Source: Streptosporangiaceae bacterium (GTDB lineage: Bacteria > Actinomycetota > Actinomycetes > Streptosporangiales > Streptosporangiaceae). From it: a stretch of DNA of 58,205 bases. The position numbers were made by a program, and so were the translations under genes. Under the pieces are notes generated by a model that did not search any database, had not been told where the DNA came from, and saw only the letters and a list, made by a program, of their open reading frames with translations. This document shows positions 20,834-49,069 of the stretch, piece by piece; the first letter of the stretch is position 1, and the number at the start of each line of letters is the position of its first letter. Location of the stretch: positions 1 through 58,205 of the forward strand of contig JASHOV010000117.1 of NCBI GenBank assembly GCA_030038495.1, written 5' to 3'.

Positions 20834-21139
20834 AGGCCATGGAAGCGGCGGAAGATCCTGGCGCGGCGGTCGTGAGGAACTCCCGGTGCCACGCGGTCGG
20901 CGCTGCCGCCAGCTGTGGATCGGCCCGGGGTCGGAGCCGATATGTACAAGATCCGGTATTAACCGTGCATGCATTGCAGCCGCGCCGTCGTAGATAATCG
21001 TTGGCACGTGATAACACAACCGGATCTGCGAAAGGTACCGAATACTAGCCCACGGGTCATTGGAGAATATCGAGCCGCCAACGCCCTCAACTCCAAAACT
21101 CCAGTCCCGTCCCTGCTCGAATCAGGAAAGAGATATAAC

Positions 21140-22012: not shown

Positions 22013-22107
22013 GCAGAGCGAGGCAGATTTTCCAGAATCTCGAATGTGCCTGCTCATACTTGCGAGTCTCGGCGACGGCGGGCGCCCGTAGGGCAGAGAG
22101 GTTGGAG

Positions 22108-22980
22108 ATGATGGCCGACTCGACCATAGGTACGGCGCTCGCGCGTAACACCTTCGAGCGGGAGGCGTTCACCTACTACGACACCAAGCGCAACGATGTT
22201 CTGAACCTGGATCTGGGGGACCTCGACGGCTTCCACCATCACCACTTCGCGGTTGGTGACTTCGACCGCTCCGTTCTCAGCGAGCCGCCCGACCGGCGCG
22301 AGGCGGCCATCGGTGCCGAGATCCACCGCCTGGAGACTGACCAGGTCGACCTCATCCTGCAGACCCTGACGGGAATCAGTCCGAGCAGCCGGCTGCTGGA
22401 CGCCGGTTCCGGACGTGGCGGCACCGCGCTGCTCATCCACCGGACCACCGGGTGCCAGGTCGACGGAGTAAATTTCTCCCCCTACCAGAACGACTTCGCT
22501 CGCCGCGCCGCGCAGCGGCACGGCTACGCCGCGCACATTCAGTTCCACGATCGCAACATGACCGACACTGGCTTCTCGGACGCCTCGTTCGATTACGTGG
22601 TCAGCAACGAGACCACCATGTATGTCGATGTCTTCGAAGCGTTCCGCGAGTTCGCCAGGCTCCTGCGTCCCGGCGGCCGCTATACGCTGCTCACCTGGTG
22701 CCGCAATGACTCGGTCGCACCCGGCCTGACTGAGGCCGACGCGATCAACGCCCACTATTGCTGCCACACCCACCGCCGCAGCACATACCTCAATGCGCTG
22801 CTGGCCGCCAGTCTCATTCCCGACCAGGTCGACAACCTCACGATCCCGGCCATTCCTTATTGGGAGCTGCGCTCGGAGTCCGAGCTCGCCACCGGAATCG
22901 AACAGCTCTACCTGGACGGCTACCGCAGCGATCGCCTCAACTACATCCGCATCACCTCCCGCAAGTCCTCGACTCATTAG
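22108..22980 (+). CDS. Prenyl-diphosphate C-methyltransferase homologue (geranyl diphosphate 2-C-methyltransferase family), copy 1
   Basis: It matches remembered GPPMT blocks throughout: DGFHHHHFAVG, EIHRLETDQ, LLDAGSGRGGT, SNETTMYVDV, GGRY, PYWELRS, TGIEQLY. Confidence 0.85.
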   Translation: MMADSTIGTALARNTFEREAFTYYDTKRNDVLNLDLGDLDGFHHHHFAVGDFDRSVLSEPPDRREAAIGAEIHRLETDQVDLILQTLTGISPSSRLLDAGSGRGGTALLIHRTTGCQVDGVNFSPYQNDFARRAAQRHGYAAHIQFHDRNMTDTGFSDASFDYVVSNETTMYVDVFEAFREFARLLRPGGRYTLLTWCRNDSVAPGLTEADAINAHYCCHTHRRSTYLNALLAASLIPDQVDNLTIPAIPYWELRSESELATGIEQLYLDGYRSDRLNYIRITSRKSSTH

Positions 22981-23066
22981 CGCAGGCCGCCGAACCCCGC
23001 TCAAGAGCATCACCAGGCCGCTAAGAGCGTCGCTTGTCCAGTACCCGCACATCAAGGAGTTCTTTG

Positions 23067-23951
23067 ATGGAATCAGCTGAATCGGCAACGCGAGAAGAAG
23101 TTATCCGCAACGCTCATGACGAAACGCTCGTCAACTACTGGGACAGCAAGAAGGATGACAACATCAACCTTCTTCTCGGCAAGTCCGACGGTATCTATCA
23201 TCATCACTACGGCATCGGGGACTACGACCATTCGATCCTTGATCTCCGTAGCGAGGAGCGGGAGGCGCGCATAGCAGCAGAAATGCATCGCCTGGAAAAC
23301 GCGCAGACCGAGCTGATTCTCGAGGCACTGGGTGAGGTCGCGCCCGACGACCGCGTACTCGACCTGGGATCCGGTCGGGGTGGCACCAGCTTCATGATCC
23401 ATGACAGATTCGGCTGTTTCGTCGACGGCGTCAACATATCCCGATACCAGATCGACTTCTCGCGGCGACTAGCGGAAGAGCGCGGCGTTGCGGAAAAGGT
23501 CAAGTTCCATTACCGGAATATGCTGGCTACTGGCTTCAGCGACCACTCGTTCCAGCGCCTGGTCTCGAATGAGACGACGGCGGATTTGCTGGACCTCTTC
23601 GAGGCGTTCGGTGAGTTCTCGCGCGTGTTGGCACCCGGGGGCCGGTACGTCGTGTTTACCTGGTGCTACAACGACATGACCAATCCGCCTCGTACTGAAA
23701 TCGAAGAGATCGACCGCCACTACCCGGGCAATCACATTCACTCGCGCAGCACCTACTTCAAAGCGCTCGCCGCCAACGGCCTCGTGCCCTGCAAGGTTGC
23801 CGACCTCACCGCCGAGGGAATCCCATACTGGGATTTGCGGTCACGATCCGACCTGCGGACGGGAGTTGAAGAAGCATTCCTGACGGCCTACCGGGAGAAC
23901 AGGCTGAATTTCATGCTGATCGCGGCGGACCGCGCCTGCGGTCACGGTTGA
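23067..23951 (+). CDS. Prenyl-diphosphate C-methyltransferase homologue (GPPMT family), copy 2
   Basis: AAGGAG lies 7 nt before the ATG at 23067. GPPMT-like blocks DGIYHHHYGIG, EMHRLENAQ, VLDLGSGRGGT, GGRY, IHSRSTYF, IPYWDLRS, TGVEEAF and MLIAADRA. Confidence 0.85.
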   Translation: MESAESATREEVIRNAHDETLVNYWDSKKDDNINLLLGKSDGIYHHHYGIGDYDHSILDLRSEEREARIAAEMHRLENAQTELILEALGEVAPDDRVLDLGSGRGGTSFMIHDRFGCFVDGVNISRYQIDFSRRLAEERGVAEKVKFHYRNMLATGFSDHSFQRLVSNETTADLLDLFEAFGEFSRVLAPGGRYVVFTWCYNDMTNPPRTEIEEIDRHYPGNHIHSRSTYFKALAANGLVPCKVADLTAEGIPYWDLRSRSDLRTGVEEAFLTAYRENRLNFMLIAADRACGHG

Positions 23952-23977
23952 TCGCACCTCTGCGGAGGGAGTAACTG

Positions 23978-25072
23978 GTGACCGTCTCACGCACCCATCC
24001 AGACACGTCCCCATTCGACGTCGCTGACGTGCGACACCGCGTGAATATCGCGCTGGAGACCTTTCTCGACAGCCGGGCTGGCCATATTGCCGACGTAGGA
24101 GGTGACGATCTGTCGGCGGTATTGGAAACGATCCGGAAGTTCGTGCTGTCAGGGGGCAAGCGGATCCGGCCAGTGATGTGTTACTGGGGCTGGCGCGGGG
24201 CAGGCGGCCCAGACTGCGAGGAGATCGTCACGGCGGCAGCCTCACTGGAATTGTTCCACGCCTTCGGGTTGATCCACGATGACATCATCGACAGCAGCGA
24301 AGCGCGCCGAGGCCATCCGACAGTGCACCGCACATTCGCCTCAACGCACGCGAAGTCACACTGGCGAGGCGAGGCGGAGGCGTTCGGCACGGCAATCGCG
24401 ATCATCGTCGGCGACCTGTGCTTGTTCTGGTCAAATACCATGTTCCACGCCTGCGGGCTGTCGCCTCAGGTGTTGCTGGCCGGTGATTCAGTGCTGGACG
24501 CCATGCGCGCCGATACGTTTTTCGGCGAGTTCCTGGAGATAATGGACCAGGCTCGGGGCGCCTATTCCGCCGCCAGGGCAGCCACCATCAGTCGTTACAA
24601 GACGGGCAAGTACACGGTGGAGTACCCGCTGAAGCTGGGTGCCGTGCTGGCGGGCGCGGGTGCCGAACTACTGGCGGCTTATTCACAGTTCGGGACCCCG
24701 CTTGGTGAAGCCTTCCAGCTCCGCGATGACGTACTTGGCGTGTTCGGCGACCCGACCGTCACCGGCAAGTCGAATCTCGACGATCTGTATGAAGGTAAGC
24801 CGACCATGCTCATGGCGTTCGCCCTCGAGCGCGCCAATGCTGGGCAGGCGGAGCTTATCAAGACCCTGCATGGCAGCCCGGTCCTGGACGAGCACGGCGC
24901 TGGTGAGCTTCGCCGTGTCATGGTCGAGACAGGCGCCCTCGCCTCCGTTGAGGAGCTGATCAGCAGGCGCACCGAGCAGGCACTGAAAGTACTGGCCGCC
25001 ACGCCCGTCCCGGACCCGACCCGCAGTGTGCTGACCGCCCTGGCCACCGCAGTCACCGACCGCGGAGCCTGA
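23978..25072 (+). CDS. trans-Polyprenyl diphosphate synthase (short/medium chain)
   Basis: FARM LIHDDIID and SARM FQLRDDVLGVFGD. Phe at position -5 relative to FARM suggests a short (C10-C15) product. GGAGGGA RBS before the GTG. Confidence 0.9.
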   Translation: MTVSRTHPDTSPFDVADVRHRVNIALETFLDSRAGHIADVGGDDLSAVLETIRKFVLSGGKRIRPVMCYWGWRGAGGPDCEEIVTAAASLELFHAFGLIHDDIIDSSEARRGHPTVHRTFASTHAKSHWRGEAEAFGTAIAIIVGDLCLFWSNTMFHACGLSPQVLLAGDSVLDAMRADTFFGEFLEIMDQARGAYSAARAATISRYKTGKYTVEYPLKLGAVLAGAGAELLAAYSQFGTPLGEAFQLRDDVLGVFGDPTVTGKSNLDDLYEGKPTMLMAFALERANAGQAELIKTLHGSPVLDEHGAGELRRVMVETGALASVEELISRRTEQALKVLAATPVPDPTRSVLTALATAVTDRGA

Positions 25073-25095
25073 CCAATGGATGGAAATCGATCGCG

Positions 25096-26292
25096 ATGAG
25101 CCGTCATATCACCGCTGCGGAATTCGTTGACGCCCTGCGCGTCCACGGCGTGCAGAACGTCACGGGGGTGCCGTGCGGGCACCTCGCCGGGCCGTGGGCA
25201 CTGTTCGATAGAGCTGGAGAGCTGACCCCGGCCGCCTCGGAGGGCACCGCCCTGGCGATCGCGGCTGGCTGGGAACTGGGGGGCCGGATGTCGGCCGTCC
25301 TCTGCCAGAACTCAGGGCTCGGCAACCTACTCAACCCCCTTGCCTCACTCCTGCTGCCCTACCGAATACCCGTTCTCATCATCATGACGATGCGGGGCTG
25401 GCCTGACCCAGGGGATGACGAGCCACAGCACGCGGCCATGGGCACATCAACCACGGGCATGCTGGAGGCGCTGGACGTGCCATACGCATTCCTGGCGCCG
25501 GAGAAGCTGCAGGAGGCACTTGTCCACGCGGCCGATGCGCGGGCGCAGGGTCGGCCTTTTTTCCTGCTGGTGCCACGGGAGAGCATCGGTAAGGCGGCAG
25601 AGGCACCCTCGGCCGGGGTGCCTCCCGTCGGGGAGCGGCTCACACGCGCACGGGTTGTGTCCGCCCTCATGACGCAGTTGACCGACGAACTGCTGGTCAC
25701 CACCACCGGCTCTTTGTCCCGGCAGGCCCATCACGAGCGGGACCGCCCGGGCACGTTCTATATGCAGGGCTCGATGGGGCATGCCTCGGCCATCGGGACC
25801 GGCCTGGCGATGGCTCATCCGGATCGCGGCACGGTCATTCTCGACGGCGACGGTGCCTTTCTCATGCACCTGGGCACCGGTTCCACCATAGGCGCGTCCG
25901 GTGCGCGGAACCTTGTGCACATCATCGTCGACAATGGCTGCTATGAGTCCACTGGCTGCCAGGCGTCGACCTCGCGCTGCCTGGATTGGCCGAGTCTTGG
26001 TCACGGGCTGGGCTACAGATCAGTGGTCACCTGTGACTCGGAGCCGGGGCTGGCGGGAAATCTGCGAACCGCGCTGACCGCCGAGGGGCCGGTACTCCTT
26101 GTGCTCACGGTCGTGCCCACTCCGGACGAGGTCCACCCGAGAGCATCGGCGTCGCGCAGCCTGTCCGATATCGCGGAACGATTCCGGGCGGTCGCCACCC
26201 AGACGACGACCTCCGCGGGAACGGACCCGACGGCGGCCATGGAAACGCGCGCGAGGCCGGCGCTCAGGGGCGGCGGCAGGAGCTCACCATGA
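25096..26292 (+). CDS. ppd: Phosphonopyruvate decarboxylase (ThDP-dependent)
   Basis: Sulfopyruvate/phosphonopyruvate decarboxylase-like N-terminus (FVDALRVHGVQNVTGVPCG) and ThDP motif GDGAFLMH...IIVDNG. It sits in the cluster with pepM. Confidence 0.85.
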   Translation: MSRHITAAEFVDALRVHGVQNVTGVPCGHLAGPWALFDRAGELTPAASEGTALAIAAGWELGGRMSAVLCQNSGLGNLLNPLASLLLPYRIPVLIIMTMRGWPDPGDDEPQHAAMGTSTTGMLEALDVPYAFLAPEKLQEALVHAADARAQGRPFFLLVPRESIGKAAEAPSAGVPPVGERLTRARVVSALMTQLTDELLVTTTGSLSRQAHHERDRPGTFYMQGSMGHASAIGTGLAMAHPDRGTVILDGDGAFLMHLGTGSTIGASGARNLVHIIVDNGCYESTGCQASTSRCLDWPSLGHGLGYRSVVTCDSEPGLAGNLRTALTAEGPVLLVLTVVPTPDEVHPRASASRSLSDIAERFRAVATQTTTSAGTDPTAAMETRARPALRGGGRSSP

Positions 26293-27494
26293 GCAGCTCG
26301 GCACGGGACGGAGGTGGCATTGCCCTTCTGGCCGGCCGGGGGAGCTTCGAGAAGGTGCCCAGCCTGTGCGCGGGCCGCCGTGTGCTGGTCATCGCGAGTG
26401 CCGGGGCGCTGCAGCGGAGCCGGGCCATCACGTGGCTGCCGACGGACGCCAGGACGTTCACGGCGTTCCGCCCCAACCCCACAGTTGCGCAGGCGCTGGC
26501 GGCGGCGCAGTTCTGCCGCTCCTCGGGCGTTGATCTGGTCGTAGGTCTCGGCGGTGGCTCCGCGCTTGACGTCGCCAAGGCCGGGCGCGTTCTCCCCGCC
26601 GACGCTCACGATGCCGACGAGGTCATCGCCGGCCGTCGCCCGGCGCCGGCAGACAGACCGGAGTTGCTGCTCGTACCTACGACGGCGGGAACGGGCAGCG
26701 AGGTGACAAGTTTCGCGACCCTCTACCAGGGTTACAGGAAGGTCTCTCTCGACACCCCGGCAGCGCGTGCCGATATCGCCGTCGTGGACCCTGCCTTGAC
26801 CGAAACCTGCCCGCCTCGCCTGACGTGGACGTGTGCCTTCGACTGCCTGGCGCACGCTATGGAGTCGCTGTGGTCCGTCCGTTCCAGCGCCCGCTCCCGT
26901 GAATGGGCAGTGGCAGCCCTGCGCATGCTGATACCTGTACTGACGGACGCGGATGATCTGCCCGATACGGCCGAACGCGATACCCTTAGCCGGGCCGCGA
27001 CCCTGGCCGGGCGGGCCATCGGCATCACCCGCACCACAGCAGCCCATGCGATGTCCTATCCCCTGACCGCGCACCTGGGCGTCCCGCATGGCCTTGCCTG
27101 CGCGCTCAACCTGACCTGGCTGGTTCCCCTGGTGGAGACGGCGCAGCCGGAGCAGGTAACCGACGAACGCGGCCCGGCTGTGGTACGTGAAGCGGTCGAT
27201 ACCCTGCGGATTGCGTTCAACGCTCAGGGCATGGACCTGGCCAGTGTGCTGCGGGCAATGATCGGCCGCCGGGTAGAGCCGCCGTACGGCGACGCCCGGT
27301 GCCCGCGGCGGCCGGGCGCCCGCACGGACGATGCCTGGATCGATCTGCTCGTGGCGGAGGGAATGTCCTCGAATCGGATGACAGGGACGCCTGTGCGGCT
27401 GGAACGATGGCAGGTGCGGGCTGGGCTGGAAACGATCCTCCCGGTCATGCGATCAGCAGGCGGGCACCAAGCTCGGCTTCGTCAAGCCCGGTGA
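26289..27494 (+). CDS. Iron-containing (group III) alcohol dehydrogenase, candidate phosphonoacetaldehyde reductase
   Basis: The GLGGGSALDVAKA motif and metal-binding His residues (HAMES, HAMSY) are present. ATGA overlap with ppd. Confidence 0.85.
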   Translation: MSSSARDGGGIALLAGRGSFEKVPSLCAGRRVLVIASAGALQRSRAITWLPTDARTFTAFRPNPTVAQALAAAQFCRSSGVDLVVGLGGGSALDVAKAGRVLPADAHDADEVIAGRRPAPADRPELLLVPTTAGTGSEVTSFATLYQGYRKVSLDTPAARADIAVVDPALTETCPPRLTWTCAFDCLAHAMESLWSVRSSARSREWAVAALRMLIPVLTDADDLPDTAERDTLSRAATLAGRAIGITRTTAAHAMSYPLTAHLGVPHGLACALNLTWLVPLVETAQPEQVTDERGPAVVREAVDTLRIAFNAQGMDLASVLRAMIGRRVEPPYGDARCPRRPGARTDDAWIDLLVAEGMSSNRMTGTPVRLERWQVRAGLETILPVMRSAGGHQARLRQAR

Positions 27495-38908: not shown

Positions 38909-40591
38909 TTGTGTGTCGTAGGTGGTGAGACGGACGTGACAGGCGATGCATCGGGGTATCGCGAGAATGGGTGGTGGCGGAATGAGACCTTCCTTGATGA
39001 CCTGCGGCGCGATGCCAAGGAGGTCCCGGAGAAGCCGGCGCTGATCGCGTACCGGGAGCAGGACGCGCAGACCCGAGTCGTGAGCTTCGCCGAACTCGCC
39101 AGCCTCACCGATGGCTTCGCGTCGGCCCTGGTCCGCCTCGGCGTCGGGACCGGTGACGTGGTGGGCGTGCAGCTGCCGAGCTGGTGGCAGGTCGCGCCGC
39201 TCGGCCTGGCCTGTGCGCAGGTTGGCGCGCGCCTGTGTTTACTCCTGCCCATCTACCGGCGCTACGAGCTGGAGCACATCCTGCGGCTGACGGGCGCTCG
39301 TGTCTGCATAACAGTGACCGAGTGGGGCGGGGTACGGCTGGCAGACATCGTGGCCGATCTGGCGCTACAGCTGCCATCGCTCGAGCACGTCGTCGTCGCC
39401 GACACGGTGCCCGGCATCGCACGCCCGGCCGGGACGCTGGACTTCGCAGACGTCTTTCGCGCGGCACCGGCGGCCGAGCCGGCGGCTCCCGCCGATGCCG
39501 CTCCCGGCCCGGACGATAACGAGGTTCGCGAGCTAGGGCCGGACGAGCCGTTCCTGATCTTGTTCACCTCTGGCACGACCGGCGAGACCAAGGGAGTGGT
39601 GCACAGCCAGAACACCCTCTACGCGGGATGCCGCGCGTATGCGCGCCCGCTCGGCCTGGACGGTTCGTCGGTGATCTTCGTGGCGCACGCGGCCACCCAC
39701 TACACCGGCTTCGTGCTGGGCATGCTGCTCCCGATCATGCTGGGCTGCCGGGCGCTGGTGCAGGACGTCTGGGACGTGGACGTCCACCTCGACCTAGCCG
39801 AACAGCACGGCGTGACGACCTTTTACGGCGGGCCGCATATCCTTGCCGACCTGATCACCGCGCAGCGTGCGGCGCCGCGTGATGTGAGCCGACTTGCCAG
39901 CATCGTCACCGGGTCCGCGCCCATTCCGCCGCACGTGGTCGAGCAGGTGTCTGAGGTACTGGGCGCCAGGGTGTTCGCGCTCTGGGGCATGACCGAGAAC
40001 GGCACGGTCACGATAACCCGGTCGTCTGACCCGGTCGGCTGGGCCGCGCACAGCGACGGCAGCGTGATTGACAGCATGGAGTTGCGCATCGATCCCTCGG
40101 CGGTCGGCGGCAGCAGCGACGGATCGGGCCGACTGTGGGTGCGCGGGGCGAACCAGTGCCTCGGCTATTTCGGACGCGACGAACTGTACGCGGCTGCGCT
40201 CGATGAAGATGGCTGGTTTGACACCGGTGACCTGGCCCGCGACGACGGCCGCGGCGGCATCAGGATCAGCGGCCGGGTCAAGGACGTCGTCATACATGAG
40301 GGCGTCAACGTGCCGGTGGCTGAGGTCGAGGGCATCCTGGCGCGGCATCCGAGCGTCAGGGAGGTAGCGCTCATCGGCGTGCCCGACCGCGGCATCGATG
40401 AACTGGTCTGCGCTGTCATTACCCCGGTCGGCGACTCGCCCGGGCTCGGTTCGCTGCGTGCGCACCTGGAGACCGCGGGGGTTGCGCAGTTGTTCTGGCC
40501 GGAACGGCTCGAGGTCGTGGACGTGTTGCCGAAGACGATTACAGGAAAGGTACGGAAGACCGAGTTGCGCGAGCGCTTCGGCGGGGCCTGA
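38909..40591 (+). CDS. AMP-dependent synthetase/ligase (acyl-CoA ligase, cyclohexanecarboxylate-CoA-ligase-like)
   Basis: AMP-binding motif LFTSGTTGETKGVVHS, plus GWFDTGDLA and a C-terminal ITGKVRK. The start is TTG 38909 or GTG 38936. Confidence 0.85.
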   Translation: MCVVGGETDVTGDASGYRENGWWRNETFLDDLRRDAKEVPEKPALIAYREQDAQTRVVSFAELASLTDGFASALVRLGVGTGDVVGVQLPSWWQVAPLGLACAQVGARLCLLLPIYRRYELEHILRLTGARVCITVTEWGGVRLADIVADLALQLPSLEHVVVADTVPGIARPAGTLDFADVFRAAPAAEPAAPADAAPGPDDNEVRELGPDEPFLILFTSGTTGETKGVVHSQNTLYAGCRAYARPLGLDGSSVIFVAHAATHYTGFVLGMLLPIMLGCRALVQDVWDVDVHLDLAEQHGVTTFYGGPHILADLITAQRAAPRDVSRLASIVTGSAPIPPHVVEQVSEVLGARVFALWGMTENGTVTITRSSDPVGWAAHSDGSVIDSMELRIDPSAVGGSSDGSGRLWVRGANQCLGYFGRDELYAAALDEDGWFDTGDLARDDGRGGIRISGRVKDVVIHEGVNVPVAEVEGILARHPSVREVALIGVPDRGIDELVCAVITPVGDSPGLGSLRAHLETAGVAQLFWPERLEVVDVLPKTITGKVRKTELRERFGGA

Positions 40592-40594
40592 TCC

Positions 40595-41995
40595 GTGGCG
40601 CGGCGGCGCTGGCAGGTGCTCAGCGCTATCTGCGCCGGCGTGTTCCTTGCGGCGATCGATTTCTACATCGTGACCGTCGCCGTCCCCGACATGCTGCGCA
40701 GCTTCAGGGACGCGGGTATCGCCGAGATCTCCTGGGTATTCAACGGATACACGATCACCTTCACCGCGGCGCTGCTGCCTGCTGGCGGCCTGGCCGACAT
40801 GTTTGGCCGTCGTCGCGTCTTCCTGTTCGGCCTGGGCGCGTTCTCGGTCAGTGCCCTCGGCTGCGCGGCCGCGCCCTCGGCGGCCACGCTGATCGCCGCC
40901 AGGCTGGTCCAGGGAGCGGCCGGAGGAACGATCACGCCGCTCGCACTGCCGCTCATCCTGCCGCATTTCACCGCGGAGCGGCGCGGCTACGCGATCGGGC
41001 TGTGGAGCGCGACCCAGTCCGCGGCGATAGCCGCCGGGCCGTCGCTGGGAGGCGTGCTGGTGTCGGCGGTGGGCTGGCGCGCCGTGTTTCTGCTGCAACT
41101 GCCGATCGGGCTGGTCAGTTTCGCGGGCGCGGCCTGGGCACTCGACCGCGACCGCCCGAAGGCGCAAGGCTCCGCCGCTCCTGATCTGCTCGGCGTGCTG
41201 CTGCTCGCGCCGGCCATCGCCCTGACGTCGCTGGCGATCGTGCAAAGCCACGCGTGGGGACCCCTCAGCTGGCGCACCGACCTCACGCTCGTCGTCGGCC
41301 TGCTGCTCGGGGTGGCCTTTGTCCGCCGTTCGCTGTCCATACCGGCGCCCCTCATCGATCTCGGCCTGCTCAGAATCCGGACAATGCGGCGCGCGAGCGC
41401 GGTGATGCTGGCGACCGGGCTGGTCATGTATGCGCTGCCGGCCGCCGCTGTCTTGTTCCTGACCGAAGTATGGCGCTACTCGGAGGCGCGGGCCGGCCTG
41501 GCTGTCACTCCAGGGCCGCTGGTCCAGGGCCTCGCGGCGCTGGCCGGCGGGCGGCTGTCCAGCCGGTACGGACCGCGCGCCGTGGCCGTGCCAGGCGCGG
41601 CTTTGCTCGCCGCCAGCACGCTCGCCTTCGCCCTGGCGACCGGCAATCATGCCGGGTACTGGGCAGTGATCTTCCCGGCTGTGCTCGGCAGCGGCGCGGC
41701 CGTCGGCCTGCTGGTCACGTCGCTCAGCGCCGCGGCCCTCAGCGAGGTACCCGCCGCCCGGCTTGCATCGGGCACGTCGATCTCGGCGATCGCGCGGGCT
41801 GCCGGAGCTGTCGTTAGCCTGGCGGCACTCGCGCTGATCCTCTCGGCGGTGCCCGATGGCACCAGCACCCTGCACGCTTACCACATCGCCTGGACCTTGC
41901 TGGCCGTGCTGGCGTTTGTCGCGCTTGTGACTAGCTTTACCGTACGTAACGGAAGTGATCAGAGTGAGTCAATGTCACTTCCGTTACGCGACTAG
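40595..41995 (+). CDS. MFS transporter (DHA2/EmrB-like)
   Basis: The N-terminal block AIDFYIVTVAVPDM...GGLADMFGRRRVFLFG and ~14 TM helices. Confidence 0.85.
   Translation: MARRRWQVLSAICAGVFLAAIDFYIVTVAVPDMLRSFRDAGIAEISWVFNGYTITFTAALLPAGGLADMFGRRRVFLFGLGAFSVSALGCAAAPSAATLIAARLVQGAAGGTITPLALPLILPHFTAERRGYAIGLWSATQSAAIAAGPSLGGVLVSAVGWRAVFLLQLPIGLVSFAGAAWALDRDRPKAQGSAAPDLLGVLLLAPAIALTSLAIVQSHAWGPLSWRTDLTLVVGLLLGVAFVRRSLSIPAPLIDLGLLRIRTMRRASAVMLATGLVMYALPAAAVLFLTEVWRYSEARAGLAVTPGPLVQGLAALAGGRLSSRYGPRAVAVPGAALLAASTLAFALATGNHAGYWAVIFPAVLGSGAAVGLLVTSLSAAALSEVPAARLASGTSISAIARAAGAVVSLAALALILSAVPDGTSTLHAYHIAWTLLAVLAFVALVTSFTVRNGSDQSESMSLPLRD
41945..41988 (+). terminator. 14-bp perfect stem / 16-nt loop hairpin inside the last 50 nt of the MFS gene (candidate terminator/attenuator)
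   Basis: cgtaacggaagtga...tcacttccgttacg. No T-tract. A TTGACA promoter-like element follows immediately. Confidence 0.4.
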
Positions 41996-42081: not shown

Positions 42082-43419
42082 TTGACTCTGGGTAACGAGG
42101 CTTTGCTTCCGCCCCAGCGATTCCCGCAGATCGGGGACGCTGATGACGCTCGGCTCGCAATCTTTGGTGGCAGCCCGGTGCGGCGCGCGCCCTGGCCCAC
42201 GTATGACAAGGGCGCCGTCTTCGTGCACGCCGAGGACGAGGAAGCCGCGATCCGCGCTATCCGCAGCCATCTTTATTTCCGCTACGACTGGCGGCCGATG
42301 CACGAGACCGAATGCGGCCGGCTCGAGGCCGAGCTGTGCCAGTACTTCGGGACCGCCCACGCGCTGGCTACGTCAAGCGGCACCACGGCTCTGGCCCTCG
42401 CGATCATCGCGGCCGGGATACCGGCGGGCTCGGCGATCGCATTACCCGGATTCACCTTCGTCGCCACGCCCAGCGCGGTCATTCTCGCTGGATGCAAGCC
42501 CGTGCTCATCGAAGTTGACGAGAACCTGCACCTGGATCTGGCCGATCTGCGCCGCCGCTGGACCCCTGACATCAAGGCGATCCTGGTCGTGCACATGCGC
42601 GGCTTCGCGGCCGACATGGAGGCACTGACCAGCCTGGCCGCGGACATGGGCGTGCCCGTCATCGAGGACGCCGTGCCCGCGCTAGGTGCCGAGTTGAATG
42701 GCCGCAAGCTCGGCACGTTTGGCCTGGCCGGGGCCTTCAGCACGCAATCGGACAAATCACTGAACAGCGGTGAAGGCGGATTCCTCATAACTAATGACGG
42801 CGCACTCTTCGCGCGTGCCGTTGTGCTTTCCGGGGCCTACGAGGGACGTTTCAGGCAGCATTTCCCTGATGCCCAGCCACCGGTTCCTACCGATCTCGAC
42901 CTTCCGCTATTCAGTTTCCGCATGGATGAGATACGCGCCGCTCTGCTGCGCGCGGAGATGGCTCGGCTGCCGGTCCGCCTGGAAAACTTCCGGGCCAACT
43001 ACGAACACGTAGCCGCGGCGCTGCAGAACGTCAGCGAGATCGCCGTCCGGCAGCCGGTAGCGCCGGGCGCCTATCTAGGCGAGGCGCTCATCTTCCGGGT
43101 CCTGTGCGGAGACGCGGAATGGTTTGCGCGCGCACTGTGCCGCGAAGGTATCGATGCGCGCTGCTTCGGCTCGTCGCAGGACTGCAACGTCCGGGTGTTC
43201 TGGAACTGGCGGTTCATGTTCGGCACTGCGGACGTCGGGGCCATCAAGGCACTGCTGCCGAACACCTCGCGGCACCTGGATCAGGCCGTCGACATCCCGC
43301 TGTCGTCGACCCTGTCCGCAGCGGACTGCGATCAGCTGGTGCAGGCAGTTCGCAAGGTAGCCGCGGCCAGCCGGCGACAGAACCGGCGGCCGAGCGAGCC
43401 GACGGCGGCTCTGCGCTGA
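42082..43419 (+). CDS. DegT/DnrJ/EryC1/StrS-family PLP-dependent aminotransferase
   Basis: SSGTTALALAI and the PLP-lysine block FSTQSDKSLNSGEGG. GGTGAGGAG RBS before the TTG. Confidence 0.85.
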   Translation: MTLGNEALLPPQRFPQIGDADDARLAIFGGSPVRRAPWPTYDKGAVFVHAEDEEAAIRAIRSHLYFRYDWRPMHETECGRLEAELCQYFGTAHALATSSGTTALALAIIAAGIPAGSAIALPGFTFVATPSAVILAGCKPVLIEVDENLHLDLADLRRRWTPDIKAILVVHMRGFAADMEALTSLAADMGVPVIEDAVPALGAELNGRKLGTFGLAGAFSTQSDKSLNSGEGGFLITNDGALFARAVVLSGAYEGRFRQHFPDAQPPVPTDLDLPLFSFRMDEIRAALLRAEMARLPVRLENFRANYEHVAAALQNVSEIAVRQPVAPGAYLGEALIFRVLCGDAEWFARALCREGIDARCFGSSQDCNVRVFWNWRFMFGTADVGAIKALLPNTSRHLDQAVDIPLSSTLSAADCDQLVQAVRKVAAASRRQNRRPSEPTAALR

Positions 43420-43423
43420 CGCC

Positions 43424-44407
43424 ATGAGCAGACCACCGCTGAAAGTTCTCTGCATCACTGGCTGGTGCAGGAACGGCAGCACGATCATCGGCAATATCCT
43501 GGGTGAGATCCCCGGCCTCTTCCACGTGGGCGAGCTGCACTTCCTGTGGATGAACGCGGCCGGCCGGGGCTCGAACAACCTCTGCGGCTGCGGCACCGAG
43601 CTTGTACGGTGCCCGGTCTGGTCGCAGATTCTGCGAGTCGGCCGGCCGGCCGGCGTTAGCGCGGCCGAGTTCGCCGATACCGTGATTGGCCGCCAGCAGG
43701 CCTGCGTGCGGACGCGGCACACCTGGCGGGTGCTGCGTCACGAACTGGCTGGCGAGCAGATTCGCCAGCATGCCGCCTTGATGACCGAGGTCTACCACGC
43801 CACCGCGGCGCGAACCAGCGCGAGTGTGATCGTCGATACGAACAAGCTCCCGGCCGAGGCGGCGCTGCTTCCATACCTGGACGGGATCATCCCTTACTAC
43901 GTTCATCTCGTTCGCGATCCGAGGGCGACCGCTCAGTCATGGAGCCGGCAAAAGCAGTACGCCTACGTGATGCCGTCCTGGCAGAGCACGGCCTACTGGC
44001 ACGGCTTTAACCGCGCTGCGCTCGCTGTCACCCGGCGCCACCCGGATCGCTCGCTGTTCATCCGCTACGAGGACTTCATCGCCCATCCAGCGGGTGCGAT
44101 CGACGCGATGCTGCGGTTGTGCGGTGCGGAAACCGCCGCCAATCCGATGCAAGGCCGGACCGTCGAGCTTCGCACCAATCACACCGTGACCGGCAACCCG
44201 GATCGGTTCTGGTCGGGGCCCACGGTCATCCGTGACCGGGACGAGTCGTGGCACGGCCTGCCGGCCCGGTCAAAGCTGACGGCTGTGACCCTGTCCTGGC
44301 CGCTATTCCACCGGTACGGCTACCACGTCGCCGGCACGTTCCGGACAACGCCATGGCGGCCAGAAGCCGCCGCAAGGACCGCCGCAGAGCCAAGCTCTCG
44401 ACATTAA
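43424..44407 (+). CDS. PAPS-dependent sulfotransferase family protein
   Basis: 5'-PSB-like ITGWCRNGSTI and 3'-PB-like VHLVRDPRA motifs. Confidence 0.8.
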   Translation: MSRPPLKVLCITGWCRNGSTIIGNILGEIPGLFHVGELHFLWMNAAGRGSNNLCGCGTELVRCPVWSQILRVGRPAGVSAAEFADTVIGRQQACVRTRHTWRVLRHELAGEQIRQHAALMTEVYHATAARTSASVIVDTNKLPAEAALLPYLDGIIPYYVHLVRDPRATAQSWSRQKQYAYVMPSWQSTAYWHGFNRAALAVTRRHPDRSLFIRYEDFIAHPAGAIDAMLRLCGAETAANPMQGRTVELRTNHTVTGNPDRFWSGPTVIRDRDESWHGLPARSKLTAVTLSWPLFHRYGYHVAGTFRTTPWRPEAAARTAAEPSSRH

Positions 44408-44418
44408 GGAGCTCTCGG

Positions 44419-45258
44419 TTGGATCTAGGTCTGCACAACAAGGTAGCGCTCATCGCGGGCGGCTCCAGCGGCCTCGGCCTGGCGGTGGCCACCGAGCTGG
44501 CGGCCGAGGGCGCGCACGTCGCAATCGGCGCTCGGGATCGCGAGCGGCTCGCTGCCGCCGAGCGCGGCCTGAAGGAGGTGGCGCGCGGCCGGGTGTGCAC
44601 GAGCAGCGTCGACATCTCGGACCAGGACGCGGCGCGCGGGTGGGTGGACGAGGTGGCGGCCGACTTCGGCGCGCTGCACATAGTCGTGGTCAGCGGCGGC
44701 AGCCCGCCCGCCGGCCTGGCCTGGCAGTTCGACCTCGACGACTACAAGGAGTCCGTCGGCTCGGTGGTCTTCCCGCCGGTGGGCCTTGCGCTGGCGGCGT
44801 TGCCCCACCTCCGTGCCGCGCAGTGGGGCCGGCTGCTGTTCGTGGCGTCGGAGACCGCGAGCGTTCCGATCCCGTCACTGACCCTGTCCGGCATGGGGCG
44901 CGCCGCCCTCGTGCGATTCGCCCAGGCGGCCGCGGCGGAACTCGGCCGCGACGGCATCACCGTCAACGTGCTCGCGCCCAGCGCGACCCGCACCCAGATG
45001 GTGGAACGGGCGGCAGCGCGGCTGGCAGCGCTCGCGCCGGCCGAAGGCGACGCCGAGGCCCAGCTGCGCAGGATGGGTCAGCACAACGCCGTCGGCCGGA
45101 TAGCGCGACCGGAGGAATTCGCGGCGGTGGCGGTGTTCCTGGCTAGCGAGCGCGCGTCGTTCGTCACCGGCGGCGTGCACCTGATTGACGGGGGCGCCAG
45201 CGTCATGGGACCGGCACTGCCTCACTTCACCAACGCCCCGAGGGACACCTACACATGA
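44419..45258 (+). CDS. Short-chain dehydrogenase/reductase-fold protein lacking the canonical YxxxK dyad
   Basis: AAGGAG lies 7 nt before the TTG at 44419. Cofactor motif GGSSGLG. The segment expected to be YxxxK reads SGMGR. Confidence 0.8.
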   Translation: MDLGLHNKVALIAGGSSGLGLAVATELAAEGAHVAIGARDRERLAAAERGLKEVARGRVCTSSVDISDQDAARGWVDEVAADFGALHIVVVSGGSPPAGLAWQFDLDDYKESVGSVVFPPVGLALAALPHLRAAQWGRLLFVASETASVPIPSLTLSGMGRAALVRFAQAAAAELGRDGITVNVLAPSATRTQMVERAAARLAALAPAEGDAEAQLRRMGQHNAVGRIARPEEFAAVAVFLASERASFVTGGVHLIDGGASVMGPALPHFTNAPRDTYT

Positions 45259-46106
45259 CACACGCCTATACCGAACAGGACGTTGAAGACTTCTTCGATG
45301 AGACGCTGCCGAACTATCTGGGATTCTGGGATAGCGACGGTGTCCTGCACACCGGTTATTTCTCTGGCGACGCCGACAGCAACTATCCGGCGGCAGCCGA
45401 GCGGACCTCGGCGATGCTGGCCGCGCGGGCCGGGATCGGCGGCTCGTCTTATGTGCTCGATGTGGGCTGCGGCTGCGGCAACTTCCTGACCTATCTGGCG
45501 GGTCACGCCGGCTGCCGTGGCGAGGGCGTGGATCTGAGCGAGGAACGGGTCAAGTTCGCCCGGCAGCGACTCGCCGCGGTCAGCCCCGGCCAGCAGGGTC
45601 GCGTCGCCTTCCGGCATGGCTCGGCGACGCGGCTGCCCTACGAGCCCGCCACCTTCAGCCATGTCGTCAGCCAGGACGCGCTCTTCCTGGTGCCCGACAA
45701 GGCCCGCAGTCACGCGGAGATCTATCGCGTGCTCAGGCCAGGCGGGATATTCGCGTTCTCGGACTTCCTTCAGCCCGTCGCCGATATCGGGGAACGCGCC
45801 AGAAAACACGTGTACGACCGGGTGCGATGGAGCGGCGGCTATTCGCTCGCCGGATACCAGGCCGCGCTGGAAGAGGCCGGCTTCGAGATCAGCCTCGCCG
45901 ATGACCTGCAGGACCACATCCGGCAGACCTATCGGGTTCTCGGCGTGACCGCGCGCGAGCGTGCCGACACGACACAAGATTCTGCCGCGCGTGAGTGGAT
46001 GCTCACCTTCGCGCAATCATGCGGCGAGATCCAGGCGGCCATCGATCGTGGCGAATTCGGCTGGGGAATGATCGTCGCTCGCAAGCCAGACAACGCCGGC
46101 GCATAG
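45255..46106 (+). CDS. Class I SAM-dependent methyltransferase
   Basis: VLDVGCGCGNF and LRPGGIFAF motifs. ATGA overlap with the SDR gene. Confidence 0.8.
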   Translation: MTHAYTEQDVEDFFDETLPNYLGFWDSDGVLHTGYFSGDADSNYPAAAERTSAMLAARAGIGGSSYVLDVGCGCGNFLTYLAGHAGCRGEGVDLSEERVKFARQRLAAVSPGQQGRVAFRHGSATRLPYEPATFSHVVSQDALFLVPDKARSHAEIYRVLRPGGIFAFSDFLQPVADIGERARKHVYDRVRWSGGYSLAGYQAALEEAGFEISLADDLQDHIRQTYRVLGVTARERADTTQDSAAREWMLTFAQSCGEIQAAIDRGEFGWGMIVARKPDNAGA

Positions 46107-46123: not shown

Positions 46124-46999
46124 ATGCAGCAGACGGCCGCGGTCAAACGAACGATGGCGGAAGTGGTCGCCGAGCGACAGCAGCAGATGTCGCCGGGCCG
46201 GATATTCGCCGAGGCATGTGCCACCAGCGGCCTTGAGACGTGTGTCGAGTTCGACGTCACGATCACCGATTCGCTGACCAGCTCGCGGCGGAAGCCGCGG
46301 TACCCGGCGCGCAATATGCTCAAGGTTGTCGACCTGTCGAAAGACCCGCGCCGTTATTACTGGCATGAGACCGCGCCGCGGCCGGATGACCCGAAGGTTA
46401 CCTATTCCGACCTCCGACCCGAGGTCGCGCACCACTTCCACAAGTCGCCGGTCCCGGAACTGTCCGCGACGACCGCCTGGGTCCAGGTCCCGCCGGACCT
46501 GTGGGAGGACGCCGAGACCTTCGAGTCCTTCATCAACTACCGGCTGATCATCCGCCTCGGCACGGCCGAGAATCACACGATCATTCGCAGCCGGGGCGGG
46601 CTGCTGAACATCCCCGGGATCGCGAGGATGACGTCGCCGGGCCCGTTCGCGTCCACCATCCTGGCCGCGTGCAACGAGGTCGAGCAGATGGGCGCCACCG
46701 CCGACGGGCTCATCATCAACCCGGCCGACTACTACCAGTTCGTCGGGCAGGGCCGGCTGATGGACGATCTGGAGCAGAACGGCGTCTTCATCGTGCGCAC
46801 GCGCCTGGTCGATCCCGGAACCGCGATCATCGGCGACTTCGGGCATGGCGCCCAGCTCTTCGACGCCGGTCGCTCGGTAATCCGCTTCGCCGACCCGCCG
46901 CCGGGGACATTCGCCGAGCCCGGAATTGCGCTGATGGCCGAGATCTACGAACAGGTCGTGGTCAACCTGCCGACTAATTTCTTCGTCGTCAGCATCTAG
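46124..46999 (+). CDS. HK97-fold major-capsid-like protein = encapsulin-like nanocompartment shell candidate
   Basis: The C-terminal two thirds align by eye with HK97 gp5 blocks. GLLN matches GLLN. ADGLIINPADYYQF matches SGIVLNPRDWHNI. AIIGDFGHGAQLFDAGRSVIRFA matches FTVGGFDMASQVWDRMDATVEVS. LMAEIYEQVVVNLPTNFFVV matches LCEERLALAHYRPTAIIKG. There is no delta/scaffold domain and no portal, protease or terminase nearby. GAGGGGA RBS. Confidence 0.8.
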   Translation: MQQTAAVKRTMAEVVAERQQQMSPGRIFAEACATSGLETCVEFDVTITDSLTSSRRKPRYPARNMLKVVDLSKDPRRYYWHETAPRPDDPKVTYSDLRPEVAHHFHKSPVPELSATTAWVQVPPDLWEDAETFESFINYRLIIRLGTAENHTIIRSRGGLLNIPGIARMTSPGPFASTILAACNEVEQMGATADGLIINPADYYQFVGQGRLMDDLEQNGVFIVRTRLVDPGTAIIGDFGHGAQLFDAGRSVIRFADPPPGTFAEPGIALMAEIYEQVVVNLPTNFFVVSI

Positions 47000-47004: not shown

Positions 47005-48285
47005 ATGCGCGGTGATCCCGATGTGCTGATCATCGGCGGCGGCGCGGCCGGCCTTTTCTGCGCCTATCACCTGCGCCGGCGCGGCAGGAGCGTCGCGGTG
47101 CTGGAACGCGGCACCGTGGGCGGCGCGCAGTCCTGCTCGTACGGCAACACGGGATTCGTCGGCACGCACGGGGCTGCGGCCCTGGCCGAGCCCGGCATGC
47201 TGGCCGCGGGACTGCGCGGCCTGCTCAATCCCGCTTCCGCCGTCGCCATCCGGCCACTCGCCGACGCCGATCAGCTCCGGTGGCTGTGGCATTTCCGGCG
47301 GGCATGCGCCGACCGGAGCGCCGCGGCCCGCCTCGGCGTCCTGGTCGACATGAAGCGGCGAAGCCTGAGCATGCTTCGCGAGCTGGCCGCGGACCGCGGT
47401 CTCGGCGCGACCTTCGCGATGCCGGGCATGGTGCTGGCGTTCAGGACCGACCAGGCATTCGAGCGGGCGCGGGCCGGCCTGCCGGCCATGGCGGACCGGG
47501 GTGTACCGCTGCGCGCACTGACCCCGGCGGAGCTGCGTTCCCTGGAACCAGATGCCGACTTCGCCATCCGCGGCGCCCTGTACAACGAGGAGGGAGCCTT
47601 CGTCCGCGTCCCCGGGTTCATCGTCGAGCTTGCCCGGCTGCTCGTCGAATCCGGGGTAGAGATTCACTCGCAGGCCGAGGTCACCGGCTTTGACAGTTCC
47701 GGCGGCCAGGTGGATCGGGTGCGGACGACCGGCGGGACGTTCCGGCCCGGTCATGTGGTGATCGCGGCCGGGGCGTGGTCGGCGCGGTGCGCGCGCATGC
47801 TGGGGGTCAGGCTCACGCTGCAGCCGGTGAAGGGCTGCAGCATCACGGTCAGGGCGCCGGGCAACGGACCGCGGCGACCGGTCCTGCTGGCCGAGGACAG
47901 GGTGGCAGTCACGCCGCTTGGCGACCAGCTCAGGTTCGCCGGCGTCATGGAGGTGTCCGGCATGAACCCTGCGGTCTCGTCCCGGCGCATGGCCGGGGTT
48001 CGCCGCATCGTCCGCGCCTACCTGCCGCGGATGACCAGCACCGAGACCGTCGAGACCTGGAGCGGCCTGCGCCCGTGCGCGCCAGACAGCCTCCCGTTCC
48101 TGGGCCGGGCCGAGCCGTATCGCAACCTGTACATCGCGGCCGGCCACGGGCAGATGGGAATGGGCCTGGCCCCGGCCGGCGGGGAACTGGTCGCGCAGGC
48201 CATCGCGGGCGAGCAGGCGGACCTGGACCTGGCGCAGTTCCGCATCGACCGGTTCGGCAAGCCCTCGGCCGGCCGCCGGTCATGA
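47005..48285 (+). CDS. FAD-dependent oxidoreductase (DAO family, D-amino-acid dehydrogenase/oxidase-like)
   Basis: N-terminal dinucleotide fold DVLIIGGGAAGLFCAYHLRRRGRSVAVLE. It starts 5 nt after the shell gene stop. Confidence 0.85.
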   Translation: MRGDPDVLIIGGGAAGLFCAYHLRRRGRSVAVLERGTVGGAQSCSYGNTGFVGTHGAAALAEPGMLAAGLRGLLNPASAVAIRPLADADQLRWLWHFRRACADRSAAARLGVLVDMKRRSLSMLRELAADRGLGATFAMPGMVLAFRTDQAFERARAGLPAMADRGVPLRALTPAELRSLEPDADFAIRGALYNEEGAFVRVPGFIVELARLLVESGVEIHSQAEVTGFDSSGGQVDRVRTTGGTFRPGHVVIAAGAWSARCARMLGVRLTLQPVKGCSITVRAPGNGPRRPVLLAEDRVAVTPLGDQLRFAGVMEVSGMNPAVSSRRMAGVRRIVRAYLPRMTSTETVETWSGLRPCAPDSLPFLGRAEPYRNLYIAAGHGQMGMGLAPAGGELVAQAIAGEQADLDLAQFRIDRFGKPSAGRRS

Positions 48286-48998
48286 CCGGTACCGAGCGGC
48301 CAGACGTCGCGATCGGCGTGCTGTGCCTGGACACTGCGTTCACGAAGATTCACGGCCATATCAGGAACCCGGCAACCTTCGGCTTTCCTGTTGCCTACAA
48401 GGTGGTGCCGGGCGCGACGGCGGAGCGGGTGGTAAGCCAGGCCGATCCGGCGCTGCTGGAGCCGTTCATCAGCGCGGCAAGGGAACTCGAACAAGACGGC
48501 GTGGCGGCGATCACCAGCGCGTGCGGATTCCTCGTCCTGTTCCAGCGTGAGCTGGCCGGATCGGTCAGCGTCCCGCTGTTTTCTTCGAGCCTGATCCAAC
48601 TGCCCATGGTGCATCGCATGCTGCGCCCGGATCAGAAGGTCGGGCTGCTCGTCGCCAGAGAGCAATCTCTCACCCGGCGTCATCTGGCCGCAGTTGGTGC
48701 CGAGTCGGTGCCGATCCGCGTCGCCGGGATGGACGGGCAGCCTGAGTTCCGCGAGGTGATCCTTGAGGCCCGGCGCGCCGACCTCGACGCCGGTCGCCTG
48801 GGCCAGGAGGTTCTCCGCGTCGCAGCGGGTCTCGTCCGCGGCAATCCCGACATCGGAGCGCTCGTGCTCGAGTGCACCGACCTCGTGCCGTTCGCGCACG
48901 CGATCCAGGCACGAGTCGGCCTGCCGGTCTTTGACATCGTCACGCTGACCGAGATGGTGCACCAGACCCTGACCCGCCGCCCCTACGGCTCGGCCTAG
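48282..48998 (+). CDS. Asp/Glu/hydantoin-racemase-family protein
   Basis: Start at the ATGA overlap at 48282. Paired catalytic-Cys motifs ITSACGF and LECTDL. Confidence 0.8.
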   Translation: MTGTERPDVAIGVLCLDTAFTKIHGHIRNPATFGFPVAYKVVPGATAERVVSQADPALLEPFISAARELEQDGVAAITSACGFLVLFQRELAGSVSVPLFSSSLIQLPMVHRMLRPDQKVGLLVAREQSLTRRHLAAVGAESVPIRVAGMDGQPEFREVILEARRADLDAGRLGQEVLRVAAGLVRGNPDIGALVLECTDLVPFAHAIQARVGLPVFDIVTLTEMVHQTLTRRPYGSA

Positions 48999-49041: not shown

Positions 49042-49069
49042 TTGACATATGTCGATAACGGAATATGAT
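49042..49069 (+). promoter_or_regulatory. Near-consensus promoter TTGACA-N16-TATGAT
   Basis: Read directly. The A of the in-frame ATG at 49076 lies 7 nt after the -10 element, which fits a leaderless transcript. Confidence 0.5.

Follow-up and report, generated by a model that had tools for sequence, protein, structure and literature searches.

A Family 3 encapsulin gene in a compact sulfotransferase-containing operon of a Streptosporangiaceae bacterium

What is the role of a capsid-like protein that is encoded in the middle of an operon of biosynthetic enzymes? This question is raised by a stretch of 58,205 nt from a Streptosporangiaceae bacterium (contig JASHOV010000117.1, positions 1 to 58,205; in the following "the window"), in which an original prediction, made from the letters of the DNA, had recognized a capsid-like gene between the genes for a methyltransferase and a flavoenzyme and had proposed that it encodes an encapsulin-like shell. 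The gene product, here called Enc3, was analyzed together with its operon and its relatives in other genomes. The element in question is:

46124..46999, + strand: Enc3, Family 3 encapsulin shell protein with an HK97 fold and a family-specific N-terminal extension of about 50 amino acids (NF041188, AlphaFold2 (AF2) model, Foldseek, profile comparison with HK97 gp5)

The identity of Enc3 as a protomer of the Family 3 ('natural product') encapsulins is close to certain. Its role is best explained by a shell that is formed by Enc3 and in which, or on which, a carbonyl reductase and a sulfotransferase of the same operon are located; the probability of this explanation is estimated to be roughly 60%.

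Identity and fold of Enc3

The open reading frame is intact, extends from an ATG at 46124 to a TAG at 46997-46999 and encodes 291 amino acids. A GAGGGG-type ribosome-binding site is located 6-7 nt upstream of the start codon. All four capsid-like blocks quoted in the original prediction (GLLN, LIINPADYYQF, IIGDFGHGAQLFDAGRSVIRFA, AEIYEQVVVNLPTNFFVV) were found in the translation. The G+C content at third codon positions is 0.88, in line with the genuine genes of the window, and the dN/dS ratio against close orthologues is 0.15-0.25. The start codon follows the methyltransferase stop at 46106 by 17 nt, and the stop codon precedes the flavoenzyme start at 47005 by 5 nt; both spacings had been given exactly. 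Enc3 is kept by purifying selection within a translationally coupled biosynthetic operon.

The family assignment is based on the NCBIfam model NF041188, "family 3 encapsulin nanocompartment shell protein", which matched Enc3 with E=1e-95 and 319.9 bits at a cutoff of 180. Residues 24-286 span positions 1-266 of the 266 positions of the model, that is, the match runs from end to end, and RefSeq orthologues with 82% identity to Enc3 already carry the name 'family 3 encapsulin'. The family was defined by Andreas and Giessen in 2021 with 132 members in six operon classes, in which sulfotransferases and short-chain dehydrogenases/reductases (SDRs) are common (PMC8346489). The original prediction had referred to this survey as describing a class in actinobacterial and myxobacterial biosynthetic gene clusters, often with sulfotransferase and SDR neighbours, and had considered that the locus may belong to it; this account of the survey was accurate, and the membership is borne out by the score of the model. 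According to a review from 2024, Family 3 is without experimental validation and without identified targeting peptides (PMC11664910). Consistent with the earlier remark that no member had been characterized, sequence searches and Foldseek structure searches of the Protein Data Bank (PDB; 2026 copy) did not reveal any Family 3 chain, and the literature search did not reveal any experimental work on the family, neither before nor after that review. The family is small: among 1.84 billion representatives, 156 clusters (50% identity) were obtained at E<=1e-3, and in this search its sequence space graded into phage capsid proteins of about 400 amino acids.

The relation to HK97 gp5 was already detectable with single-sequence phmmer against the PDB (E=3e-6). 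It became stronger with a profile of close Enc3 homologues (E=4e-8) and was very strong with a profile restricted to Family 3 (27 sequences; E=1.5e-26), in which positions 53-282 correspond to residues 131-376 of gp5. Structure prediction by AF2 from 29 close homologues (>=75% identity) reached a pLDDT of only 49, and a diverse alignment was used instead, which yielded a model with the HK97 fold (pLDDT 87, pTM 0.83). The top PDB match of this model in Foldseek was HK97 prohead I (8fqk_D, E=1.4e-17, TM 0.68/0.74), and further neighbours were HK97 prohead II and the phage D3 prohead. Family 1 encapsulins were weaker (E about 1e-10, TM about 0.5), and the best matches among viral predicted structures were HK97-family capsid proteins. 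The claim of an HK97 fold thus holds in the sequence profiles and in the AlphaFold comparison that had been suggested as a check.

In the model, the N-terminus of Enc3 consists of two helices (residues 11-20 and 24-38) and a strand (40-43) ahead of the gp5-homologous part. For Family 3, an N-terminal extension of about 50 residues with an N-helix and an extra beta-strand has been described, unlike in Families 1 and 2 (PMC11664910), and the first approximately 50 residues of Enc3 correspond to this family-specific extension. Within it, G25 does not vary and F28 hardly varies across the 27 aligned sequences of Family 3. The profile that contains only Family 3 sequences aligns from gp5 residue 131 onward, and nothing in it matches the delta domain, in agreement with the earlier statement that an N-terminal scaffold or delta domain is lacking. 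One candidate for a delta-domain remnant was rejected: a mixed profile, A2, paired Enc3 positions 13-51 with phage capsid residues 73-135, but the family-3-only profile starts at positions 51-53 (= gp5 131), and the pairing was an artefact of the phage sequences in A2.

The cross-link lysine of HK97, Lys169, aligns with Arg98 of Enc3. At this position R, A, T, L, F or W was found in the 27 Family 3 sequences, but never K, and therefore no chainmail is formed. The 'xLxPE' tip of the E-loop is conserved, and the glutamate E100 beside Arg98 is invariant in Family 3. Compared to gp5 (PDB 8fqk, 3qpr, 1ohg), Enc3 shares the fold, the sequence homology over gp5 residues 131-376 and the E-loop tip, whereas the delta domain, the cross-link lysine, the protease, the portal and the terminase are missing. 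Enc3 is a capsid protein of the HK97 fold from which the delta domain and the cross-link lysine have disappeared, along with all phage partners.

A Pfam comparison of PF05065 with PF04454 had also been suggested. It yielded a sub-cutoff score for PF05065 (14.5 versus 24.2 bits; similarly, 12.4 versus 27.5 for TIGR01554) and, for PF04454 (Linocin_M18, Family 1), no match even at E<=10. Family 1 chains were also absent from the sequence and profile searches of the PDB with Enc3, and the likeness is at the fold level only. The Family 1 encapsulins of T. maritima, M. xanthus (EncA) and Q. thermotolerans are likewise HK97-fold cellular shells encoded beside cargo enzymes, and the N-terminal helix of Enc3 is located where Family 1 shells bind cargo targeting peptides (PMC11664910). 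Family 1 cargo has recognizable C-terminal targeting peptides, whereas none was found in the Enc3 operon. Family 2, with cysteine desulfurases, terpene cyclases and related enzymes as cargo, has in common with Enc3 the capsid-derived shell protein and the link to sulfur or secondary metabolism. Its cargo is loaded via disordered terminal domains, whereas the enzymes of the Enc3 operon do not have such domains of 50-300 residues, and none of the solved Family 2 shells was matched by the sequence of Enc3.

The operon and its counterparts in other genomes

Enc3 is encoded in a group of nine tightly packed genes, all on the + strand, which comprises about 10 kb and does not include a nonribosomal peptide synthetase (NRPS) or polyketide synthase (PKS). 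From the sulfotransferase gene through the racemase-like gene, the gaps and overlaps range from -4 to +17 nt. Pfam confirmed the enzymes that the original prediction had listed as neighbours, namely the DegT aminotransferase, the sulfotransferase, the SDR, the methyltransferase, the FAD oxidoreductase and the racemase-like enzyme. In addition to enc3, the genes are:

38909..40591, + strand: AMP-binding acyl-CoA-ligase-like enzyme (PF00501; cyclohexanecarboxylate-CoA-ligase-like, below cutoff)
40595..41995, + strand: DHA2-family efflux transporter of the major facilitator superfamily (MFS) (PF07690; TIGR00711-like)
42082..43419, + strand: DegT/DnrJ/EryC1-family pyridoxal phosphate (PLP) aminotransferase (PF01041, E=5e-59)
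43424..44407, + strand: sulfotransferase of the 3'-phosphoadenosine-5'-phosphosulfate (PAPS) type, Sulfotransfer_3 (PF13469, E=5e-11)
44419..45258, + strand: SDR-family carbonyl reductase/dehydrogenase, 279 amino acids, TTG start (PF13561/PF00106)
45255..46106, + strand: S-adenosylmethionine (SAM)-dependent methyltransferase (PF08241; weak likeness to sarcosine/dimethylglycine N-methyltransferase)
47005..48285, + strand: DAO-family flavin adenine dinucleotide (FAD) amine oxidoreductase, glycine-oxidase/D-amino-acid-dehydrogenase-like (PF01266, E=2e-65)
48282..48998, + strand: Asp/Glu-racemase-superfamily protein, 238 amino acids (NF005679, 288 bits versus a cutoff of 231)

A start of the SDR gene at 44248 was replaced by the TTG at 44419 on the basis of an AAGGAG site and the alignment of orthologues. 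The nearest solved relatives of the DegT protein are a Kdo8N transaminase and a 2-deoxy-scyllo-inosose aminotransferase. The flavoenzyme is NF001933-like, below the cutoff, and similar to glycine oxidase (4ysh, E=2e-36). The start of the racemase-like gene overlaps the flavoenzyme stop by 4 nt and agrees with a gene call in the locus L001, and its product has a weak match to the cysteate racemase CuyB. The DHA2 transporter is probably the product exporter.

A genome scan revealed 77 Enc3 loci with 58-83% identity in Streptosporangium, Nonomuraea, Nocardia, Micromonospora, Jatrophihabitans and metagenome-assembled genomes (MAGs). The nearest genome has 82-83% identity, and to judge from the homologues the host is an uncultured relative of Streptosporangium. 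A protein identical to Enc3 was found only on a Logan contig of 3.3 kb. In 64 of the 77 loci all six core proteins (DegT, sulfotransferase, SDR, Enc3, glycine-oxidase-like flavoenzyme, racemase-like protein) are encoded in the same order. Counted singly, DegT is present in 72, the flavoenzyme in 73 and the racemase-like gene in 71 of the 77 loci, whereas the methyltransferase is optional (48 loci) and is missing from the Nocardia loci. The pair of AMP-ligase and DHA2 MFS genes was found in only five of the 77 loci; the ligase, which is accessory, has the same upstream position in L017 and a downstream position in L013, L037 and L075. In most other loci the MFS gene is a different one and is located between DegT and the sulfotransferase. 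The flanks of the operon are unlike even between two Streptosporangium strains, and therefore the operon is a self-contained unit. Enc3 is the best-conserved operon protein in 50 of the 64 loci, with a mean identity of 74.9% compared to 55.7-73.1% for the enzymes, and the flavoenzyme is the least conserved of the core proteins.

These results bear on the possibility that enc3 is a leftover major capsid gene of a prophage that came to lie inside the operon by chance and has no role there. Outside of Family 3, the nearest relatives of Enc3 in sequence and structure are indeed phage HK97-type capsid proteins. However, a Pfam scan of approximately 50 open reading frames across the window, together with a PHROGs search for those that had no Pfam match, did not yield a portal, protease, terminase, tail or integrase, there is no tRNA in the 58 kb, and Enc3 itself had no PHROG match at E<=0.001. 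The scores of Enc3 with PF05065 and TIGR01554 remain below the cutoffs, as described above. In addition, the gene occupies the identical operon position in 77 genomes from several actinomycete families, and its low dN/dS ratio and its rank as the best-conserved protein of the operon are at odds with a relic. A prophage remnant is thus effectively excluded, and the original prediction was right that this is not a phage gene. The only 'tail fibre' PHROG matches of the window came from a 377-amino-acid protein encoded at 3284-4417 (+), 42 kb from enc3, which contains a collagen-like Gly-X-Y repeat of 45 residues (residues about 244-294; the Pfam Collagen match is sub-threshold). Because this is a low-complexity match, it is not evidence for a prophage.

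The locus closely resembles the operon of Micromonospora and Nocardia that is depicted in Fig. S9 of PMC8346489, which contains an SDR, a methyltransferase and amino-acid enzymes and for which a pathway was proposed. Common features are the full-length match to the family model, the size of about 290 amino acids, the HK97 fold, the N-terminal extension of about 50 amino acids, and an actinomycete cluster that lacks phage genes and encodes a sulfotransferase, an SDR, a methyltransferase and enzymes of the amino-acid type. Only the arrangement differs: in the window the AMP-ligase and DHA2 MFS genes are located ahead of DegT, and the sulfotransferase gene follows DegT without an MFS gene in between. 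Because the curated hidden Markov model, the named RefSeq orthologues and the operon of Fig. S9 exist, the original prediction is regarded as the correct recognition of a known, experimentally uncharacterized kind of gene, and the locus itself contributes only a minor arrangement variant of a known operon type.

Several further observations were made on these loci and on the window. In L017, L050, L065 and L076 the flavoenzyme, the racemase-like gene or both are absent beside Enc3, and thus these two genes are less tightly bound to Enc3 than the sulfotransferase and the SDR. Two MAGs labelled Chloroflexi (L023) and Terriglobales (L066) contain Enc3 operons that are 76-78% identical to that of the window; their occurrence outside of Actinomycetota could be due to horizontal transfer or to mis-binning. 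In L023, DegT is located downstream on the opposite strand. Directly after the last gene of the window operon, at 49042-49069 (+), there is a near-consensus match to a sigma-70-type promoter (TTGACA-16 nt-TATGAT, 11/12), which coincides in part with the annotated start of an ArsR/AHSA1 gene pair and delimits the Enc3 operon at its 3' end; otherwise, a promoter and terminator scan of 38-50 kb was uninformative on operon boundaries. At a distance from the operon, the region 13426-27494 (+) comprises a probable phosphonate cluster with genes for a phosphoenolpyruvate mutase, a 2-hydroxyacid dehydrogenase, an aldehyde dehydrogenase, a UbiA prenyltransferase, an AraC regulator, a phosphoglycerate-mutase-like metalloenzyme, three SAM methyltransferases, a polyprenyl synthetase, an Fe-alcohol dehydrogenase and a thiamine pyrophosphate enzyme of the size of a phosphonopyruvate decarboxylase. 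The prenyl genes of this cluster point to a phosphonate that is linked to a lipid or terpenoid. The GC content falls to 0.61-0.65 across 18-26 kb.

Constant partners of Enc3 and the proposed shell

To which of the operon enzymes is Enc3 most tightly linked? For a comparison across operon classes, the gene neighbourhoods of Enc3 relatives with 25-49% identity (L081-L087) were compiled:

L081: CAR-type reductase, aldo-keto reductase, Sulfotransfer_5, Enc3, MFS
L082: two SDRs, HMGL-like, sulfotransferase, (transposase), Enc3, MFS
L083: aldo-keto reductase, Sulfotransfer_5, Enc3, DAO
L084/L085: sulfotransferase, SDR, Enc3, transketolase N/C, LysW, LysX, LysY, LysZ, LysK
L086: sulfotransferase, SDR, Enc3, MFS
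L087: Enc3, sulfotransferase, SDR, LysZ/K, CysD, CysN; LysW, LysX, LysY and transketolase divergent

In all five other operon classes sampled, a sulfotransferase gene lies at most two genes from Enc3, and in four of the five Enc3 directly adjoins a pair of sulfotransferase and carbonyl reductase. The sulfotransferases of four other classes are 42-46% identical to that of the window (in L087 the gene is directly adjacent to Enc3), and the SDR of L084 has 47% identity to the window SDR. The cross-class identity of the two enzymes is thus at least equal to that of Enc3 itself. In L081 and L083 the sulfotransferase is non-homologous to that of the window and is accompanied by an aldo-keto reductase; it is a functional replacement. 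An MFS exporter is present in many classes. The constant partner of Enc3 is thus a sulfotransferase, in most classes together with a carbonyl reductase, and the other enzymes vary by class. The sulfotransferase and the SDR are therefore proposed as functional partners and as candidate cargo.

Two observations on sulfation were made in the same set. The Enc3-linked Sulfotransfer_3 enzymes (window, L082, L084, L086, L087) have a cysteine cluster 'N..CGCG..L..C..WS' after the PAPS loop 'GWCR(N/S)GST' and a conserved C-terminal 'RY(G/R)Y', and they have no close solved structure; these motifs may represent a metal site or a partner-binding feature. In Luedemannella helvata (L087:8001-16870), genes for a CysD-like PAPS_reduct protein and a CysN-like GTPase follow Enc3, the sulfotransferase, the SDR and LysZ/K, with a YcaO gene downstream. 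This apparently dedicated PAPS supply underlines the centrality of sulfation in these clusters.

We propose the following course of events. Enc3 protomers would self-assemble into a closed icosahedral shell, similar to the encapsulins of Families 1 and 2 and to HK97 proheads. The shell would contain the reductase and the sulfotransferase steps or have them docked on it. A carbonyl intermediate that the flavoenzyme and the aminotransferase produce or consume would be reduced to an alcohol, which would then be sulfated. Both steps would be kept from the cytoplasm, and the product would leave the cell via the MFS pump. The conserved N-terminal helix of Enc3 (residues 24-38) probably faces the lumen and would be the best candidate for a docking site. 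As the product, a small, polar, sulfated compound derived from an amino acid or amino alcohol is probable, or a compound formed from it by loss of the sulfate. The sequestration of (reactive) aldehyde or ketone intermediates by the shell has already been proposed for the operon type of Fig. S9 (PMC8346489), and this rationale is counted in favour of the proposal. The logic is like that of the Pdu and Eut bacterial microcompartments, in which a shell confines a reactive aldehyde or ketone intermediate; in contrast to the proposed Enc3 shell, these are built from unrelated BMC-H/T/P proteins, are much larger and are catabolic.

Several results weigh against an enzyme-loaded shell. A search for conserved terminal peptides had been suggested as a check, and the N- and C-termini of six operon enzymes (DegT, sulfotransferase, SDR, methyltransferase, flavoenzyme, racemase-like protein), aligned from 25 loci, did not contain any shared targeting peptide; the tails of DegT, the sulfotransferase and the flavoenzyme are short, variable and mildly basic. 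The only candidate for a short targeting peptide that was observed is at the C-terminus of the SDR (gene end at 45258, region 45190-45258), where a tail of about 20 residues, GPxLPHLT..ARKDTYT, extends past the usual 'DGG' end. This tail is semi-conserved among Streptosporangium, Nonomuraea and Micromonospora, whereas Nocardia has a different one and the SDR of L084 lacks it; it is specific for the operon class. The adjacency to the sulfotransferase is not absolute, because in L082 a transposase gene lies between the two genes. Furthermore, PAPS would need to cross the shell, the AF2 model is monomeric and thus silent on the oligomeric state, and no Family 3 member has experimentally been shown to assemble or to load cargo (PMC11664910).

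The lack of a detectable targeting peptide in the 25 loci and in the literature (PMC11664910) would also fit a second explanation, namely that Enc3 no longer builds closed shells and instead forms a soluble oligomer (pentamer or hexamer) or a platform that organizes the sulfotransferase and the reductase, or acts as a product-binding self-resistance protein. There is a precedent in the Family 4 'encapsulins', which are dimers and not shells (PMC11664910), and the strong conservation of Enc3 would suit any interface with multiple partners. However, Enc3 has kept the complete HK97 protomer with its E-loop, its N-arm-like segment, its P domain and its A domain, and all solved full-length HK97-fold proteins among the top 50 Foldseek matches are capsids or encapsulin shells. 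In HK97-type capsids, the N-arm-type segment is known to make inter-subunit contacts only. The corresponding extended segment of Enc3, residues 44-70, is the best-conserved part of the protein (majority-residue fraction 0.92 versus 0.81 overall), which fits a protein that is constrained by many subunit interfaces and is a hint of assembly. A non-shell function of Enc3 is thus considered to be unlikely.

A third explanation is that Enc3 forms a shell without enzymes, in which the small-molecule product or a precursor of it is stored or kept apart, or which aids its release. This would explain that no cargo tag was found in the operon enzymes, and the frequency of MFS exporters makes the handling of a toxic product a recurring theme of the family. 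On the other hand, every known encapsulin packages proteins, a shell with pores that let small molecules in would not retain them without a binding matrix, and the tight, class-independent linkage of Enc3 is to two enzymes and not to the transporter. An enzyme-free shell is therefore regarded as quite improbable, and a shell with the reductase and the sulfotransferase remains the preferred explanation.

Sulfate as a possible leaving group

Why should reduction and sulfation be confined in a shell? Two of the sampled classes carry the LysW/transketolase gene set of an aziridine-forming pathway. According to Kurosawa 2022, as cited in PMC9570651, these genes belong to the DADH pathway for vazabitide and azinomycin. 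There, DADH is sulfated, and the neighbouring amine then displaces the sulfate under closure of the aziridine. The window operon shares with the DADH step of azinomycin and vazabitide the triad of aminotransferase, carbonyl reductase and sulfotransferase; the LysW/LysX/LysY/LysZ/transketolase genes were noted for the sister Enc3 operons and not for that of the window. A second connection is given by the sulfotransferase domains of CurM and olefin synthases (4GBM/4GOX): the only PDB relative of the window sulfotransferase is the olefin-synthase 'activating' sulfotransferase 4GOX, with a weak match (E=4e-5), and enzymes of this type activate their substrate by sulfonation (PMC10946740).

Based on the LysW/transketolase set of the sister operons, the relation to 4GOX and the shared triad, it can be suggested by analogy that sulfate acts as a leaving group in the window pathway and that the shell would confine the step that forms the electrophile. 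The carbonyl would be converted to a sulfate ester beside an amine, which here would come from the DegT aminotransferase. Loss of the sulfate would then yield an aziridine or another strong electrophile, or else the O-sulfated amino acid would act in the manner of a suicide substrate. Until export, the shell would shield the nucleophiles of the cytoplasm and the PLP enzymes. The generalization that the Family 3 shells are dedicated vessels for 'sulfate as leaving group' chemistry, with the reductase and the sulfotransferase as the true cargo, is put forward only tentatively, as the odds are against it. An AziU2/U3-type cyclase was not identified, and no Enc3 was found in the characterized aziridine producers (azinomycin, ficellomycin, vazabitide); the Enc3 relatives of the LysW class were restricted to Actinomadura, Spirillospora, Fodinicola and metagenomes. 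The literature search did not reveal any paper that links encapsulins with aziridine chemistry. The linkage of Enc3 to sulfotransferase and reductase across classes and the tie to the aziridine-pathway gene set are new in this analysis. If true, the leaving-group chemistry would give one chemical rationale to all Family 3 classes, including the chloromyxamide and the LysW-type clusters.

The window locus leaves the picture of Family 3 unchanged, but with nine genes, about 10 kb and neither NRPS nor PKS it is a compact candidate for testing. By the comparison across classes, the candidates for cargo are reduced to the sulfotransferase and the carbonyl reductase, and the link to published sulfate-elimination chemistry offers a concrete and falsifiable reason for compartmentalization. 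Family 3 is the only encapsulin family with a full-length capsid protein that is without experimental data, and its shell, if real, would be the first protein shell known to compartmentalize the biosynthesis of secondary metabolites. A confirmation would reveal a way in which bacteria are protected from their own alkylating or antimetabolite warheads during production, and the shell would represent a new engineerable nanoreactor.

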